A stretch of 64,000 nt of DNA from the sequence record PZ476263.1; one strand, written 5' to 3'. The notes under the pieces were generated by a model. The model made no database searches. It had not been told where the DNA came from and saw only the letters and a list, made by a program, of their open reading frames with translations. Source of the stretch: a phage. Position 1 is the first letter of the stretch. Every line of letters starts with the position of its first letter. The position numbers and the translations under genes are program-made. Positions 2,743-56,891 of this stretch are shown in pieces.

Positions 2743-4227
2743 ATGGCGTCCAATTACGGTCTAACGGGTAGTGGATTTAACCTCCCGCCGATGGAAGACT
2801 TAGTTCAGGAAACGAAGAAAACCTTTAAGAATGAATTTGGTGAGGACTTCAATACTGAAAGCAACTCCGTCGCAGACAAACTAATTTCTATTTTCAACGA
2901 ACGTGAATACCAACTTTGGCTTTTGATGGGTTCTGTATATTACGCTCAGACAATGCAAGGTGCGGAAGGTATTTACCTTGATGATCTTCTATCTAAACGC
3001 GGTATCTATCGTAACGGCAAGACTCGAAGCACAGGTCAGGTACAAATGACCATTGGGTCAACTGTTCCTTACAATATGATCTATTCCGCGACGGCTTATA
3101 CCATTGACAATGATTATCGTCTTTCTAACGATGTACAGGTAGCAGGGAACATCTTTGCTCAAGTCATTAAAGGAACTGATCTTTCTGTTGGTAGTTATCG
3201 TCTACAGATCCAGAATATTAATGATCAATCCATAAAGGTCATGACTTATCAACTAACAGCCACTTCCGGTGCGCCTGTTATCGCATTCTTCTCAGCAATC
3301 AAAGAATTTATCGTCGAAAACACGATCCTTTCCAATACGGATAAGATCATCATCGACTCTGTGGAAAATGCAATCTACATTGGTTATGATACTAACAAGA
3401 ATCTTACAGGGTTGTCAAGTCGTATCGACTTCAGAACTCAACCCATTGCAGGTAACCGAACGATAACTTTAGATGTTCGTGCAACAGAGCCTGGTCCAAT
3501 ATCTCGTGATGCTTACAGTGTACGAGGTATAAGTCCTGTCCCTGCCGACTTCCTCGATCTTACAAACCTTGTGGCGTTCACGCCTGGTTCAGATGTAGAA
3601 TCTGATAACGAATATCGACTTCGTGCAATCGATGCAGTTAATACCGGAAAGGCAACAAGAACCGCGATCTTGGCTGCATTGCTGAACAAGGTTGAAGGTA
3701 TTGAAAAGGTAAGGATCTTCGCAAACAACACTGACAAGACTAATGCACTTGGTGTCCCTCCTTACTCGTTTATGCCAGTTGTTTATGGTGGTAACACCGC
3801 AGAGATTAGTCAAGTCCTTTACGACACAATCGCAGGTTCCAATAACACTTCGGGAACTACCTTCTACAACATCACGACTGAAGATGACCAGGTGGAAACT
3901 ATTTGGCATACAAAAGCTCAGGCAAGAAGATTGAGCTTACGTATCAGCTATCGTGGAAGACCTCTTTCTGTTGTTGAAGAAACAACGATATCAAATAGCT
4001 TGATTACTGCGATAAATGGAACTATGATAGCCGGAACACTGTATAACGTACAGCTCGTGGGTACTGTTATCAGTTCTACCGCATCCTCCCGCTTTACTCA
4101 AGTTTTTGTAGAGATAAAGAACGTAGAAGAACCTGAATCTTCCTACGTGGGAACGGATGTGTCTGCGGCAGTGACAGAAGTTTTTGCATTGTCGGCAGAA
4201 AATATTGAATTCCGTCAAATAGTTTAA
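2743..4227 (+). CDS. putative baseplate wedge protein (J-like)
   Basis: 494-aa ORF with RBS GGAGGA upstream; size and position typical of baseplate wedge proteins; assignment by context only. Confidence 0.45.
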   Translation: MASNYGLTGSGFNLPPMEDLVQETKKTFKNEFGEDFNTESNSVADKLISIFNEREYQLWLLMGSVYYAQTMQGAEGIYLDDLLSKRGIYRNGKTRSTGQVQMTIGSTVPYNMIYSATAYTIDNDYRLSNDVQVAGNIFAQVIKGTDLSVGSYRLQIQNINDQSIKVMTYQLTATSGAPVIAFFSAIKEFIVENTILSNTDKIIIDSVENAIYIGYDTNKNLTGLSSRIDFRTQPIAGNRTITLDVRATEPGPISRDAYSVRGISPVPADFLDLTNLVAFTPGSDVESDNEYRLRAIDAVNTGKATRTAILAALLNKVEGIEKVRIFANNTDKTNALGVPPYSFMPVVYGGNTAEISQVLYDTIAGSNNTSGTTFYNITTEDDQVETIWHTKAQARRLSLRISYRGRPLSVVEETTISNSLITAINGTMIAGTLYNVQLVGTVISSTASSRFTQVFVEIKNVEEPESSYVGTDVSAAVTEVFALSAENIEFRQIV

Positions 4228-6531: not shown

Positions 6532-7044
6532 ATGAGAATGAATAATTTTAAAGTATACTCGCCAGAGGTTAAAGCTTTTGGTGAAGGAGTTCAATATTTT
6601 CAAGATGAAAAGGGAAGGGACTTCTATGAATCTCGTGGACTATTCAAAAAGAAATATGTAGTTTTCTTTGATGAGCACAATATAGTTCGTGGATGGGCAA
6701 AAAGTGAAGAAGTTACCCGTCTTCACCCAGGTGGTTTATCCGTTGTCGACCTGAATACCTTGCCGAAAGAATTTTCTTTACAGGATGGTGTGTGGTCATT
6801 CAATGGGAAACAGGTCGTTAAAGCCGACTATGATCCGGTATTTACCACGGAAGTAAGAAAGGCAGGTATTTTGCAAGTAATTGGGTCTGTTATCGCCCCA
6901 CTTCAAGATGCTGTTGAATTAGGAGAGGCTACGGAAGAAGAGACTGAAAAATACAATCATCTCCGCAGGATGAGAGTTAAAGTCATGCGTATTCCAGATA
7001 GCACTTGCCCCGCCGATATAGACTGGTCAGAGTTTACTGTCTAA
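6532..7044 (+). CDS. putative tail fibre assembly protein/chaperone
   Basis: About 170 aa, immediately downstream of tail fibre gene; start placed at ATG 6532 after AAGGA; track ORF begins 6505. Confidence 0.4.
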   Translation: MRMNNFKVYSPEVKAFGEGVQYFQDEKGRDFYESRGLFKKKYVVFFDEHNIVRGWAKSEEVTRLHPGGLSVVDLNTLPKEFSLQDGVWSFNGKQVVKADYDPVFTTEVRKAGILQVIGSVIAPLQDAVELGEATEEETEKYNHLRRMRVKVMRIPDSTCPADIDWSEFTV

Positions 7045-23651: not shown

Positions 23652-24875
23652 CACAATATGTTCGTTAAAGGTCGCAACTCTTTAACCGGGATCGTATACA
23701 CCTGAAGAAATATCTCTTCACACTTTCGAGTACGATTCCTGTTTCTTTTGCTACGTCACAGAAATCTTTCCCATCAAGTATCATTTTTGTTATCTCTAGT
23801 TCCAACTCTTCTTTAGTTTTGTTTCTTAACTTACTGACCCCAAAAGTTTTATCTTCGGCAAATTTACCGATAAAAAATCTAACTGTCGGTTTCTCTAAGT
23901 TTAGGATCTCACAAATCTTTAAAAGAGTCGCACCTTTCCACCATAAAGATCTTGCTTCTTCTGCAAGATGTTTCTTTTCTTCCACTTCAGAAACACATTT
24001 CCCCATGTCGAAAGTTTTTAAGTATCTTGCTGCAAAGTGCCTTTCTTGTCCAAGGTCCAGAGAGATTTTTGCATACGAATCACCTGCCAGATATCTTTTA
24101 TGGATGTGCAGATACATCTCTCCATAGTTATCAAAGCCGGATTGTTTTGCTCTATTATCTCTTTTTGCCATTGAACTTCTTTCAGATGCGATAGTTTTTA
24201 TGGACTCACCAAAAGAGTTTCCAATTGCATCTGGACTAGGACTCACCGCTGAAAAAGTATTATTAGTCATGTTATAGAATTCTGTATTGTTGGCTGCATC
24301 ATTCTCTAAAAGAACTTTTTCTTCGATTTCACGAAGGAGATCTCTTTTGTCTACAACTTCCAACACCTCAGCTACAAATCTATGACCACTTTTTAAATCC
24401 TTTTTCATATCTGGATTGGAAGAGGACCCAAGATAAGGTTTTCCACTCTTAATCGAGATTATTGTGGGGATTCCATCCACATCTATCACTTTGCATTCAC
24501 TTTTACTTCCGATATATTTGTTCGGGTATTCTTCTTTATCGATGTTTTTCAAGAGATAAACAATGTTCATGTATACGTCCTCCGCTGTATCTTTCAACAC
24601 AGTTCAGACTATATCTTTGACACACTAAAGGATAGCTGAACCAATCTACCCCTAATGTATCACAAACCACTTCGATTGTCTACGCTTACAATCTACGCCT
24701 TCCGGCTAGTCGTTGAACCTTCTACCTGTCTGGTAGCTTGGCTGCTGATTGCCCAATCCTTTAACTTTTTAAACCTTCGCTTTGTATTCCTACTCGCAGT
24801 GGTATAAAGGCTCTAAGGGGTTCCCAGCAATTCAATTTGTTTTATACTGAGGCAGCTTTAGTTTACCACAGTGTG
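23652..24875 (-). mobile_element. group I intron interrupting the DNA polymerase gene, carrying a GIY-YIG homing endonuclease ORF
   Basis: All four conserved core elements on - strand RNA: P AAUUGCUGGGAAC (rc of 24820-24832), Q AAUCAGCAGCC (rc of 24740-24750), R GUUCAACGACUAGCC (rc of 24704-24718), S AAGAUAUAGUCUGAAC (rc of 24602-24617); polymerase reading frame resumes after the inserted ORF; exact splice sites not resolved. Confidence 0.75.
23665..24600 (-). CDS. GIY-YIG family homing endonuclease (intron-encoded)
   Basis: 311 aa; N-terminal MNIVYLLKNI...NKYIGSKSE matches the GIY...YIG module; Lys-rich C-terminal half; RBS GGAGGA; located inside the intron downstream of core element S. Confidence 0.75.
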   Translation of the reverse strand: MLKDTAEDVYMNIVYLLKNIDKEEYPNKYIGSKSECKVIDVDGIPTIISIKSGKPYLGSSSNPDMKKDLKSGHRFVAEVLEVVDKRDLLREIEEKVLLENDAANNTEFYNMTNNTFSAVSPSPDAIGNSFGESIKTIASERSSMAKRDNRAKQSGFDNYGEMYLHIHKRYLAGDSYAKISLDLGQERHFAARYLKTFDMGKCVSEVEEKKHLAEEARSLWWKGATLLKICEILNLEKPTVRFFIGKFAEDKTFGVSKLRNKTKEELELEITKMILDGKDFCDVAKETGIVLESVKRYFFRCIRSRLKSCDL

Positions 24876-26594
24876 TTTACGACGGCCTGTATTCGTTATT
24901 CCAGTATAACGTGCAGGTAATTTACCGTCCACCGCAAGTCGAGGATGGTTTAACCAACCTGTATCTACTTTATCCTCTTTCAAAGGATCAAGAACACTTC
25001 GACGGTTACGAAGAGATAGCCATTTTACAATCTGCTTTGCCATATCACCATCGACTCGCTCAAGGTTAGGACAAAGGCCCTGCTGATCCTTAAGCTGCGG
25101 TGATGTTGGTAATGCTCTTGCCTTCTTCCTGAAGAACTTATACATCTTCTCTTTATCTTGCCACTGCTTACCACTGATACCTAAACTTTTCAGAATCAGA
25201 TCGCGATATTCAGTCTGGTCAAGATCATCAATGTATTGACGAACAATGATATCGACTTCGTTATCGGGACGTTGTTTCTTAAACTGGTCCTTCGTCGCAT
25301 CTTTGGTTCGCCACAATGTTGGGACCCAACCCGCATCACGAATAAGGAATTTTTTAACGTCATCCTGATTACCAATACGCATCGGAATCATAATATCCGG
25401 CATCTTTTGATCTTTGATATCCATCAATGCACGGGCCATGTCTTCCGGTGGCAAAGGTACAAGATTTTCCTTTTTCACATTTTGAGAACGAATAAATTCA
25501 GCCATTTTGGATTCATCTTCTACACCATGCTCTACACAATACTTAATTGCAGCAGATGTGAGTGAACCATCGCCCTTAAACGGCTTACTTGGAGCGCCTT
25601 TAAATTCAAGAGCTTCCCAATTCACATTGTAACCTAACTTCTCTAACCATTTCCAGCCCGTACCAGAAAGAGATCCATCTCCTTTAAACGGCTTAGACGG
25701 GAAAGTAGGCTGTGCTGACTTGGACATCTCTTTCTTCGGCAGCTTTGGTTCAACCTCTTCTTCAATTTCTTTCATCATCGTATCAATACGATCACGCAAA
25801 GCTAAACCTTTCTCCACGTCGAAAGTAACACCCTGAATTTCTTGCTCAACCATCAAATAGTCGGTAAGCATACCTCGACGCAAGGCATTCTTCCAATTGA
25901 TGAGCTTCATCTTCTTCGGATCTTTGTCCGATTCATCTTTGTACATGAAACGTTTATCATCCGGCATAGAGTCACATGAAATTTCTTTCATGAGGGCATC
26001 CCATACCATTTCGTTGATGATTACGTCTTCAATAATACGATCACAATATTTCCACAAAGGGAGTCCACGCCAATCTTCGATTGCTACCTTCTGGTTTGCT
26101 ACTCGCATACCCCAAGCTTCAAGTCCATGAGGGCCTACAGGCTTCATTTTACCTGTAACTGGGTTCTTTACCATCTCGGGACAACCGCGCGGCAGAGGGC
26201 GATCTGGATACAGTGTACGGGACATTGAAAGGGTATCGAAGATGTTAACTTGTTTACCATTGATAGTCCCCATGCAACCAGGGTCTGCAAACATATCGTA
26301 TGTTGTTCCAAACATCTTTTTAAACAGCTGTAAGTCATAGCCGAAGATATTATGGATAGCAACAGCTTTTGGTTCAGTCACAAACCACTCATTAAGTTCT
26401 TCCAACTTACGGATCTTAAAGTTCTTACCTTTGGATTGAATAAACTTAACCGCTTGCTCGTAGCCTTCGCGGTTCGGATCGATAAAAATATTCCAATTGT
26501 CCTTTTTGTACTCTTTAAAAAGAACACAGTGAACAAGATCAACTTCTGTCAACAGGCCGTTAGCCTCTGCATCTCCAATAAACAAACCTTTCAT
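24858..26594 (-). CDS. DNA polymerase, family A (T7 gp5-like), 5' exon: 3'-5' exonuclease domain plus N-terminal part of polymerase domain
   Basis: FIGDAEANGL (Exo I), GPHGLEAWGMRV and GWVPT match T7 gp5 landmarks as recalled; ends ...TGRRKHTVVN just before the conserved PNL(Q)xIP region; last codons and stop probably intron-encoded. Confidence 0.85.
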   Translation of the reverse strand: MKGLFIGDAEANGLLTEVDLVHCVLFKEYKKDNWNIFIDPNREGYEQAVKFIQSKGKNFKIRKLEELNEWFVTEPKAVAIHNIFGYDLQLFKKMFGTTYDMFADPGCMGTINGKQVNIFDTLSMSRTLYPDRPLPRGCPEMVKNPVTGKMKPVGPHGLEAWGMRVANQKVAIEDWRGLPLWKYCDRIIEDVIINEMVWDALMKEISCDSMPDDKRFMYKDESDKDPKKMKLINWKNALRRGMLTDYLMVEQEIQGVTFDVEKGLALRDRIDTMMKEIEEEVEPKLPKKEMSKSAQPTFPSKPFKGDGSLSGTGWKWLEKLGYNVNWEALEFKGAPSKPFKGDGSLTSAAIKYCVEHGVEDESKMAEFIRSQNVKKENLVPLPPEDMARALMDIKDQKMPDIMIPMRIGNQDDVKKFLIRDAGWVPTLWRTKDATKDQFKKQRPDNEVDIIVRQYIDDLDQTEYRDLILKSLGISGKQWQDKEKMYKFFRKKARALPTSPQLKDQQGLCPNLERVDGDMAKQIVKWLSLRNRRSVLDPLKEDKVDTGWLNHPRLAVDGKLPARYTGITNTGRRKHTVVN

Positions 26595-53699: not shown

Positions 53700-53703
53700 A
53701 GCA

Positions 53704-53732
53704 AGGCCCCTCCCCTGGGGCCTTTTTCTTTT
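53704..53732 (+). terminator. rho-independent terminator
   Basis: AGGCCCC-tccc-ctGGGGCCT hairpin followed by TTTTTCTTTT. Confidence 0.7.
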
Positions 53733-53760
53733 ATGTCCCCCAAAATATTTAAAAATGTTG

Positions 53761-53788
53761 TTGACAGTAAAATTGATTCTGATAAGAT
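53761..53788 (+). promoter_or_regulatory. sigma70-like promoter driving ncRNA-like element copy 1
   Basis: TTGACA 53761-53766, 16 nt, TAAGAT 53783-53788. Confidence 0.55.
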
Positions 53789-53794
53789 GTATCC

Positions 53795-53869
53795 CATCAG
53801 GACGGGGAACGAAGTAAACACTTCCCGTTAAGTAGTCCAGGAGTAAGACATACGAAAAACTCCCCTGAT
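53795..53869 (+). ncRNA. candidate small structured RNA, copy 1
   Basis: No ORF; outer ATCAGG/CCTGAT pairing and inner ACGGGGA/UCCCGU hairpin; near-identical second copy at 56493-56569 with a different loop. Confidence 0.45.
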
Positions 53870-53887: not shown

Positions 53888-53942
53888 TTGACAAGAAATT
53901 AAAAACTGTTAAGATGTATCACATAGGGCGGCAATGAGGCCG
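53888..53942 (+). promoter_or_regulatory. sigma70-like promoter plus leader hairpin
   Basis: TTGACA 53888-53893, TAAGAT 53910-53915, hairpin GCGGC-aatgag-GCCGC 53926-53942. Confidence 0.6.
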
Positions 53943-53965
53943 CAGATAACAAAGAGATAAAGAAA

Positions 53966-54337
53966 ATGGCTAAAAATATCAATGTTGCAATGTACGCTGA
54001 ATCCACCAACGCAGATAATGTAAAATTTAAAATTAGCGAGATTGAAGCGGTTCACATTTTGGCTAAACGTTGGTTTCAATCTTCATACGGTAATACTTAT
54101 TTCTCTTTGTCTGTTGATATCGAGATCAGCGGTAAAATGATTGAAGTGGTAAACGTGCCGTTCCAATATGGCTACGGGGATCACTTTGACACTGTGGCAA
54201 TGGAAGAATTTAGCAAGGTTATTGATATGGAAAGTAAAGAATTTTTAAAAGGTAATTACCTGACACGTTTTTGTAAAGATAATGATGTATCTGTTTACTG
54301 CAATGCAGTTGATGTAAAACGTAAAAAAGATTTATAA
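53966..54337 (+). CDS. hypothetical small protein
   Basis: 123-aa ORF. Confidence 0.55.
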   Translation: MAKNINVAMYAESTNADNVKFKISEIEAVHILAKRWFQSSYGNTYFSLSVDIEISGKMIEVVNVPFQYGYGDHFDTVAMEEFSKVIDMESKEFLKGNYLTRFCKDNDVSVYCNAVDVKRKKDL

Positions 54338-54343
54338 TTGTTG

Positions 54344-54404
54344 TTGACAAGATAATTAAAAAGCGTAGAATGTACAACATAGAGGGCGGGAATGGTTCCC
54401 GCCT
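54344..54404 (+). promoter_or_regulatory. sigma70-like promoter plus leader hairpin
   Basis: TTGACA 54344-54349, TAGAAT 54366-54371, hairpin GGCGGGAA...TTCCCGCC 54384-54404. Confidence 0.6.
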
Positions 54405-54425
54405 CACTAAAAAGAGATTAAAATC

Positions 54426-54650
54426 ATGGCTATTATCACCACCAAAATCACAAATACTGTTGGCGAGTCTTTTGTAGTTGCATTTATCACCAATCAACCT
54501 GTTGATGATATTCATTGCACTGTCAACAATTTTGCAGAAAATAATTTTGGTCAATGGTCATCTGTTGAGTACATTGAAACGGTCCAGGTTGCAGCGTTCA
54601 AGGTTAGCCAACATGTTGATTATATTGTTGCACTTGATGAATTAAATTAA
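54426..54650 (+). CDS. hypothetical small protein
   Basis: 74-aa ORF. Confidence 0.5.
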   Translation: MAIITTKITNTVGESFVVAFITNQPVDDIHCTVNNFAENNFGQWSSVEYIETVQVAAFKVSQHVDYIVALDELN

Positions 54651-56455: not shown

Positions 56456-56458
56456 TAT

Positions 56459-56486
56459 TGACACTGTATTGGAATAGTGTAGAATT
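56459..56486 (+). promoter_or_regulatory. sigma70-like promoter driving ncRNA-like element copy 2
   Basis: TTGACA 56459-56464, 16 nt, TAGAAT 56481-56486. Confidence 0.55.
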
Positions 56487-56492
56487 TATTAC

Positions 56493-56569
56493 ATCAGGAC
56501 GGGGAACAAAAACAAATAGTTCCCCGTTAAGTAGCCCAGGAGTAAGGCAGACGAAAAACTCCCCTGATA
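56493..56569 (+). ncRNA. candidate small structured RNA, copy 2
   Basis: Same element as 53795-53869; perfect ACGGGGAA/TTCCCCGT stem; loop differs while stems are conserved. Confidence 0.45.
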
Positions 56570-56576
56570 AAAAGAT

Positions 56577-56604
56577 TGACAACAAATAGTAAATAAGTAC
56601 AATA
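56577..56604 (+). promoter_or_regulatory. sigma70-like promoter
   Basis: TTGACA 56577-56582, 16 nt, TACAAT 56599-56604. Confidence 0.55.
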
Positions 56605-56654: not shown

Positions 56655-56891
56655 ATGATTGAACAAATCAAAACTACTAAACCAAATTTTAACGGTGATG
56701 TTTCTCACTTTATTGGTGACAATGAAAGAGGAACACCCTACGCTGCGGTAACAGTTCAGCCAAATGGTGATTATTGGTTTACCTTGTACGGGTCTTATTC
56801 CTTTGGACGTTCGGCACATGAAAAGATCTTACAAGTAGTTAAGCCTACAGGAAAGAACATCACGGCAGAAAAATATTTTACTAAACATTAA
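56655..56891 (+). CDS. hypothetical small protein
   Basis: 78-aa ORF. Confidence 0.5.
   Translation: MIEQIKTTKPNFNGDVSHFIGDNERGTPYAAVTVQPNGDYWFTLYGSYSFGRSAHEKILQVVKPTGKNITAEKYFTKH

Follow-up and report, generated by a model that had tools for sequence, protein, structure and literature searches.

A predicted knotted leader RNA common to early transcripts of unrelated coliphages and the T7 A1–A2 spacer

Our analysis of a 64,000-nucleotide stretch of the Vequintavirinae-like coliphage record PZ476263.1 (the whole of it hereafter called the window) points to a family of small knotted RNA domains, two members of which lie in the window. It is very probable that, at each copy, host RNA polymerase starting at a strong sigma-70 promoter makes an early transcript whose 5' domain is the element, that this domain takes up a closed, knotted fold of an uncatalogued RNA family which includes the spacer between promoters A1 and A2 of T7, and that the copy belongs to a portable terminator–promoter–RNA cassette standing before ordinary promoter–gene units. 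The comparative evidence shows a predicted sense-strand RNA fold to be under selection, close to the promoter, independent of the gene downstream, restricted to phages and spread among groups that share little else; by its setting, the element reads as a structured leader RNA that phage early transcripts carry close to their promoter. As a whole, these features are best explained, tentatively, by a new structured leader-RNA family that would bind a conserved host component, with the transcription elongation complex as the favoured candidate. An earlier note on this DNA had described a repeated structured RNA. The repeat is real and the structured-RNA idea was right; the note saw only a small part of the structure and of its reach.

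The two copies are about 75 nt long, free of open reading frames and both on the + strand (Table 1), as had been noted for 53795–53869 and 56493–56569. A 19-nt core pattern allowing up to three mismatches matches the window twice against 0.03 matches expected, and a covariance model likewise returns exactly two sites, 53829–53866 (55.1 bits) and 56528–56565 (52.3 bits). Copy 2 lies 2.7 kb downstream of copy 1. The copies are identical at 74 of 88 positions overall and at 49 of 52 from GTTAAGTAG onward; of the three differences within this conserved 3' part, two make up one compensatory pair, U53836/A53848 in copy 1 and C56535/G56547 in copy 2. The reading-frame list across both elements holds only short mechanical ORFs (30–124 aa, both strands) that start outside the elements, and there is no sign of a gene, in keeping with the ORF-free description given before.

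The minimum-energy fold consists of an outer stem AUCAGG/CCUGAU (stem P1), an inner stem (stem P2) and a third hairpin, GGAG/CUCC. The outer and inner stems said in the earlier note to be kept are both present in it, with the reservation that copy 1 folds weakly (z = -1.6), whereas copy 2 folds well (z = -4.7). The argument then drawn from 'stem-preserving variation' of these two stems carries almost no statistical weight among the 16 distinct close relatives that make up the window class, because stem P1 never varies and the base of stem P2 changes only from G-C to G-U; the distal part of stem P2 is not kept. Selection on RNA structure, which that argument was meant to support, nevertheless holds by another route, namely a pseudoknot that had been missed and covariation across the wider family.

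This pseudoknot, predicted to be of the H-type, is the conserved heart of the element. Its parts follow in the order UAAGUAG, helix S1 (G-N-C/G-N'-C), helix S2 (4–5 bp) and the A-rich loop ACGAAAAA. In S1, the G-Y-C directly after UAAGUA pairs with the G-R-C that follows a UAA linker; in S2, the five bases between the S1 strands pair with five bases after the A-rich run, and the A-rich NNACGAAAAA forms the crossing loop. The pairing was exposed by divergent copies, namely the BF17 type (L001:6667), two EJP2 copies and metagenomic copies. We have high confidence in a modelled domain made up of a closing helix (stem P1), a variable hairpin (stem P2), the invariant UAAGUAG and the H-type pseudoknot.

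In alignment A2, which has 29 distinct cores, 94.8% of the cells pair and five of eight pairs change on both sides, values reached by 0 of 500 shuffles; moving the partners by 1–3 columns brings pairing to 17–39%. The fold-and-covariation check proposed in the earlier note thus finds strong compensatory change, and finds it in the pseudoknot. The middle pair of S1 is A-U in 19 cores, C-G in five and U-A in four, and four of the five S2 pairs change on both sides (variants GGAG/CUCC, GCCUG/CAGGY, GCCAG/CUGG, GCUUG/CAAGC and GGUG/CACC). G-U pairs, which would be C-A on the opposite strand, occur in nine and two sequences of this set and in eight of the T7-type set; since they fit the + strand only, the RNA is read in the promoter sense. 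Crossing helices with compensatory change and pairing on the transcribed strand, as looked for in an H-type pseudoknot, are therefore both found. The retrieval pattern left the S1 middle pair and all of S2 free but prescribed TAAG, GAAAA and the outer pairs of S1, so these prescribed columns are invariant by construction and, S1 being only 3 bp long, its middle pair alone is informative. That pair forms in 40% of 67 chance matches to the pattern and in 26 of 27 members; S2 reaches four pairs in 21% of the chance matches and in 27 of 27 members, a comparison that is partly circular because membership used S2.

The element is not peculiar to this phage. BLAST with the whole element found 84–90% identity in 45 GenBank phage records from three unrelated groups: jumbo phages of Asteriusvirus (PBECO4, 121Q, BF17 and others, at 2–4 places per record), Vequintavirinae (A73, W70, A7_1, A5-4) and Stephanstirmvirinae/Justusliebigvirus (outra, muut, EmilieFrey). 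A 65-nt T3 query found 502 phage records, at one place each. The search of other phage genomes that had been suggested thus yields 45 + 502 records carrying the element or its core, and the family, judged from sequence, includes the T7 A1–A2 spacer. A looser pattern scan of IMG/VR added phiA1122, a 366-kb jumbo phage and many T7-like contigs. The relatives' layout is always the same: a promoter, the element from about +1, usually a second promoter, and a small gene. Every copy lies 26–63 nt after the -10 of a sigma-70 promoter; in copy 1 the distance from the end of the -10 to AGTAG is 42 nt, as in its relatives. A rule that the element follows the first promoter on the genome holds for the T7-likes and fails for the jumbo phage BF17.

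In T7 the core occupies 551–589 (62.1 bits), between the annotated E. coli promoters A1 (498) and A2 (626), and it is also present in T3, Drulisvirus, Kayfunavirus EcoDS1, LIMEzero-like contigs and T7-likes of Klebsiella and Pantoea. The two classes differ in how the knot is closed. The 3' tail pairs with the 5' end in the window class, forming stem P1, whereas in the T7 class a hairpin P2 (e.g. CCGG-GGUCAA-CCGG) precedes UAAGUAG and its loop pairs with the tail bases just after S2. This loop–tail helix reads GUCAA/UUGAC in T7, where UUGAC is also the -35 hexamer of A2, GUCAUC/GAUGAC in EcoDS1, and GUCAC/GUGAC, GAUUAG/CUAAUC and GUCGGU/ACCGAC at loci L037, L047 and L022. Across 21 distinct T7-type sequences, pairing in the four helices reaches 96.4%; compensatory change is seen at 11 of the 17 pairs and, on both sides, at all five loop–tail pairs. 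Closing helices of other members read GCGGC/GUCGC, CAACGAA/UUCGUUG and AUCGAAG/UUUCGGU. The core is complete in T7-likes that bear the label of Aeromonas or Acinetobacter phages, and Vibrio phage VP4 (330–470) gives a weak, diverged match (12.8 bits, E = 0.0015) that hints at a reach beyond the Enterobacterales; the layout there is a promoter, an RNA starting CAUCAGG, GUUAAGUAG...ACGAAAG and a second promoter. No core was found in Pseudomonas phage gh-1.

A second type of element occurs in BF17 (6667–6742), with equivalents in PBECO4, SD-2_S15 and E9.1. It has no P2 hairpin and is probably the direct 5' leader of a conserved 160-aa gene (phrog_27871), as only a weak promoter-like site follows it. 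Small length differences were seen in homopolymers: muut (~4000–4075) has an extra G in GGGG together with an extra C in CCCC, and E9.1 (~3378) an extra G only; either slips in sequencing or changes that are linked may explain them. Most of the phage records listed carry no annotation for the element; in several it lies under a 'hypothetical protein' and in two under a trehalase annotation, calls that are likely spurious.

Table 1. Features at and around the two copies of the element in the window.
Feature	Position	Strand	Basis or details
Intrinsic terminator closing the upstream unit	53703–53734	+	8-bp stem, 6 G-C pairs, then T-run
Promoter P1 of copy 1	53761–53788	+	TTGACA, 16-nt spacer, TAAGAT; predicted start ~A53796
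RNA element copy 1 (predicted)	53796–53869	+	Sequence, fold, model score 55.1 bits, covariation
Copy 1 stem P1	53796–53801 with 53864–53869	+	
Copy 1 stem P2	53802–53809 with 53822–53828	+	
Copy 1 conserved UAAGUAG	53829–53835	+	
Copy 1 helix S1	53835–53837 with 53847–53849	+	
Copy 1 helix S2	53840–53843 with 53860–53863	+	
Copy 1 A-rich loop	53850–53859	+	
Promoter P2 of gene downstream of copy 1	53888–53915	+	Promoter-like site scan
Small G+C hairpin GGGCGGCAAUGAGGCCGC, 5' end of promoter-P2 transcript	53925–53943	+	Read from sequence
Gene after copy 1, 123 aa, phrog_6246	53966–54337	+	ORF list, PHROG assignment
Promoter P1 of copy 2	56458–56485	+	TTGACA, 16-nt spacer, TAGAAT; predicted start ~A56493
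RNA element copy 2 (predicted)	56493–56568	+	Sequence, fold z = -4.7, model score 52.3 bits, covariation
Copy 2 stem P1	56493–56498 with 56563–56568	+	
Copy 2 stem P2	56499–56507 with 56519–56527	+	
Copy 2 conserved UAAGUAG	56528–56534	+	
Copy 2 helix S1	56534–56536 with 56546–56548	+	
Copy 2 helix S2	56539–56542 with 56559–56562	+	
Copy 2 A-rich loop	56549–56558	+	
Promoter P2 after copy 2	56576–56603	+	TTGACA, 16-nt spacer, TACAAT
Gene after copy 2, 78 aa, phrog_9227	56655–56891	+	ORF list, PHROG assignment

Each copy starts at the predicted +1 of a strong, near-consensus sigma-70 promoter and is followed by a second one, an arrangement that the earlier note had recognised at both sites (Table 1). 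This second promoter is the downstream gene's own. The gene after copy 1 is present in 199 phage records, and its A73 ortholog lacks the cassette of promoter P1 and RNA and keeps promoter P2, the hairpin and the ribosome-binding site; the terminator, promoter P1 and RNA thus behave as a separable cassette. The terminator directly 5' of the copy-1 cassette matches a ctRNA terminator in shape, and the same layout of terminator and cassette is found in A73 and A7_1. A73, A7_1 and outra have hairpins equivalent to that at 53925–53943. The genes behind seven of the copies fall into seven unrelated families (seven different PHROGs), and no downstream gene is constant. The surrounding region, 47–64 kb of the window, is an array of small + strand genes that we take for early genes because it carries about 21 near-consensus promoter-like sites on one strand, roughly one per gene; overall, 89 promoter-like sites were found against 57.7 expected from shuffling. 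Short G+C hairpins such as GGGCGGCAAUGAGGCCGC also stand at the starts of transcripts from ordinary promoters (53925–53943 and 54385–54403 in the window, ~7400 in L002). A hairpin at ~54375–54437 gives a sub-threshold 'skipping-rope' Rfam score (18.4 bits against the 36.7 needed), probably by chance.

The discrete transcript of 75–90 nt that had been predicted finds no support in the sequence: apart from the T7 R0.3 hairpin, no terminator-like site lies within 400 nt of about 60 copies, so a discrete RNA could arise only through processing. Of the features of a stand-alone small RNA gene, the element accordingly has its own promoter and lacks its own terminator or defined 3' end. A riboswitch was rejected on the same absence of terminators, together with the seven different downstream PHROGs and a gene that has its own promoter.

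How might such a domain act? The unpaired invariant nucleotides (UAAGUAG, UAA and ACGAAAA), displayed on a closed knot, would form a binding surface for a conserved host component. Binding would occur as the RNA leaves the polymerase, with the elongation complex as the favoured partner, and polymerases started at promoter P1 might, by analogy with known phage systems, become more processive and resist Rho, pauses or terminators. We hold this mechanism to be possible, and do so loosely. The put RNA of HK022 and the nut/boxA leaders make polymerase processive past Rho, pauses or terminators. The elongation complex is favoured because the element is the first RNA to emerge when polymerases leave a strong promoter, because a perfect boxA stands in the same leaders of T7-type and LIMEzero-type phages (23 nt after the knot in LIMEzero-like phages, 120–380 nt after it in the leaders of T7, T3 and Kayfunavirus), and because HK022 put offers a precedent in size, position and copy number.

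Like the element, put is about 70 nt long, lies close to an early sigma-70 promoter (putL from ~+3) and has two related copies per genome, putL and putR. Its action needs no phage protein and is exerted by the nascent RNA, which contains a minor-groove triplex; pausing and termination are suppressed through the beta' zinc-binding domain. The likeness ends there. Of the features of put, the element shows the promoter-proximal early position, the length of about 70 nt and the presence in more than one copy, and shows neither homology to putL or putR nor the two-stem fold: there is no sequence or model similarity (a model search of the whole HK022 genome gives at best 9.1 bits, with E above 1), put forms two stem-loops in a V shape whereas the element forms a pseudoknot, and the phages that carry put are temperate lambdoids. 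The nut and rrn leaders resemble the element in placing a structure beside boxA in an untranslated early leader, as in T7, T3, Kayfunavirus and LIMEzero-like phages; boxB, however, is a simple hairpin, and the knots of the window, the jumbo phages and Drulisvirus are without boxA. No boxA (GCTCTTTAACAA) lies near the window copies or near any myovirus copy, which counts against action on the transcription complex. So do the A2 and A3 transcripts of T7, which cover the same operon without the knot, and the presence of the knot after only two of the ~21 strong early promoter-like sites in the 47–64 kb region. The position of copy 2, just 2.7 kb past copy 1, would also be odd for a long-range antiterminator.

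Nearly as likely as such put-like action is that the knot itself is the product: acting in trans as a decoy, it would tie up some conserved host protein, be it an RNase, Rho, a defence nuclease or a global RNA-binding protein. A closed, nuclease-resistant domain would accumulate after the RNase III cut in the T7 leader, or after trimming by RNase E or exonucleases in the myoviruses; the reading as a whole is a possible one, a little weaker than that just described. It sits well with an autonomous cassette that leaves the downstream gene its own promoter and is independent of gene identity, with few copies (1–3) among the many promoters of a genome, with the very strong promoters of the cassette, and with pairing at both ends of the domain, the helix of the window class beginning at +1. 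The extreme conservation of the unpaired nucleotides across unrelated phage groups, the horizontal sharing among unrelated coliphages and the position of the T7 leader upstream of the R0.3 site favour it too. Against a decoy, all copies lack both a terminator behind them and a defined 3' end, the near-universal vertical retention in enterobacterial T7-likes points to core regulation rather than an accessory weapon, and no candidate target was found. Nor does the element have any similarity to a host RNA in E. coli genomes and plasmids. If true, the decoy would be an RNA-only factor for takeover or anti-defence, available ahead of translation.

Two further known RNAs invite comparison. The leader of the T4 gene 32 mRNA, like the leaders described here, has an H-type pseudoknot at its 5' end, and that knot is a protein-binding site; it is, however, tied to one gene and its own product, whereas the element precedes unrelated genes in phages that have no common partner protein. 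Type III antitoxin RNAs (ToxI, pseudo-ToxI) are likewise small pseudoknotted RNAs with an A-rich run, and phiTE, a relative of this phage group, uses an RNA mimic against ToxIN. A phage listed among the window's relatives is phiTE itself. Unlike ToxI, the element has no tandem 34–45-nt repeats, occurs in single or dispersed copies and has no similarity to host or plasmid sequence. Whichever the partner, the chances appear evenly balanced that this is an RNA-only host-hijacking module, a double pseudoknot found from T7 to jumbo coliphages and transcribed before any phage protein is made, which would either reprogramme the host RNA polymerase in the manner of put or disable a conserved host RNA-binding or defence factor, and which would spread as a promoter-plus-RNA cassette.

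T7 is among the best studied of viruses, and its A1 region is a standard of transcription biochemistry. The A1 transcript contains a conserved, multiply knotted RNA, common to unrelated jumbo and rV5-/phi92-like phages, that is in none of the RNA catalogues and annotations searched. Should it modify the host RNA polymerase, it would represent, after put, a second and widespread class of protein-independent RNA transcription control; action as a decoy would make it an immediate-early weapon of a new kind. In both cases it is relevant to users of A1-derived templates and to engineers of T7-like therapeutic phages.

It is unlikely that the domain serves mainly as a 5'-end stabiliser, burying the triphosphate end in a helix and so shielding promoter-P1 transcripts from RppH and 5'-end-dependent RNase E. 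Stem P1 does pair from the predicted +1 in the window class, the T7 A1 RNA has a helix from +2, and promoter-P2 transcripts likewise open with small hairpins. For such a task a plain hairpin would be enough, and a covarying pseudoknot with invariant unpaired UAAGUAG, UAA and ACGAAAA would be left unexplained. Moreover, the T7 knot is internal, at +54, and the conserved part of the T7-likes lies away from the 5' end. The T7 leader is also upstream of the R0.3 hairpin, an established RNase III site, and stabilisation of the mRNA in cis is disfavoured on this ground.

We consider it improbable that the knot is the aptamer of a small-molecule sensor or the catalytic core of a self-cleaving ribozyme, although its compact multi-pseudoknot fold, its invariant loop nucleotides and its A-rich loop over a short helix would suit either. 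Compact folds with A-rich loops are known from the preQ1-I and SAM-II aptamers and from the twister and pistol ribozymes, and preQ1-I and SAM-II share the element's topology, in which a short helix is followed by a second one and the third loop, rich in A, is placed for the groove. The element differs from these aptamers in having no Rfam match, no expression platform (neither terminator nor sequestered ribosome-binding site) and no association with metabolic genes, the genes downstream being unrelated. The pair GUUAAGUAG / GUUAAAUAG presumably recalls pistol locally; resemblances to hammerhead (CUGAUAAG...GAAA), pistol and twister are local only, with no model match. To our knowledge, self-cleavage has never been reported in decades of in vitro transcription from T7 A1.

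The least probable reading is that selection acts on DNA, with an UP-element-like part of promoter P2 joined to a terminator and promoter P1 in a recombination patch like the PeSLs of T4, and with the RNA pairing incidental. The A-tract and tail do fall at the UP-element and -35 positions of promoter P2 (the T7 stretch AAAAACAGG occupies about -46 to -38 relative to A2, whose -35 is UUGAC), and this overlap with the upstream region of promoter P2 is real and suggests dual coding. PeSLs of the T4 type are likewise composites of a terminator and an early promoter between small early genes and are associated with gene shuffling; the terminator at 53703–53734 and the promoter at 53761–53788 reproduce that layout, and the cassette and neighbouring genes are common to unrelated phages. 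PeSLs, however, have no conserved RNA domain after the promoter, whereas the transcribed knot here is conserved and covaries, and the phage groups differ. Compensatory changes in three helices, strand-specific G-U pairs, a distance to promoter P2 that varies from 2 to 45 nt, and retention of the core without a close consensus promoter (a weak 9-of-12 site in BF17 variant 2, none found by the scan at L082 and L031) all speak against a DNA-level feature.

Searches of catalogues and host sequences agree with a phage-restricted family. In the window, no Rfam 15 family, riboswitches and the twister, pistol, hammerhead and HDV-like ribozymes among them, matches any part of the element, whether the gathering threshold is applied or E values up to 10 are admitted, and the T7, T3, Drulisvirus and EcoDS1 loci give zero matches. 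BLAST against 5,426 E. coli genomes and 72,556 plasmids showed no similarity that would indicate mimicry of a host RNA. Among 100,044 bacterial species, 57 pattern matches were obtained, which is chance level; one is real, a 1058-bp scaffold of an actinobacterial assembly (Herbiconiux daphne scaffold150) that carries a T3-like early region with the full knot and is almost certainly phage contamination. No description was found in Rfam or in the full-text literature searched; a phage RNA catalogue of more than 10,000 candidates, which is not searchable, may list the family.

Several further identities were tried and rejected. A Shine-Dalgarno/anti-Shine-Dalgarno reading of GGAG/CUCC and a CsrA-type GGA loop both fall because S2 differs in other members, being GCCUG/CAGGC or GCCAG/CUGG. 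On inspection, mimicry of type I-E or I-F CRISPR repeats misfits in orientation and hairpin layout, and programmed readthrough at the UAG beside the knot is at odds with a T7 leader that has no upstream ORF or start codon.

Three observations lie beside the element. The A2–A3 spacer is also conserved between T7 (640–720) and T3 (610–690), ending in AAGGUGAAACAAAACGG just before the A3 -35, and gh-1 (560–605) has a similar GAGUAGCAACAAGGGCUGAAACAAACGC ahead of its A3; this spacer may serve as another leader element, or it may belong to an upstream part of the promoter that is shared. Three contigs of one Nitrososphaeraceae archaeon MAG (L130, 12565–12603; L131, 6093–6131, - strand; L132, 882–920) carry a look-alike, AGUAGYCCUGCAGUAAGRCUGAGGAAAAAGCUGUA, in which Y and R covary (14–22 bits) and which is probably an unrelated repeat. 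Finally, the window's only Rfam match at the gathering threshold is a group I catalytic intron at 24585–24952 on the - strand (73.8 bits, E = 7e-17).
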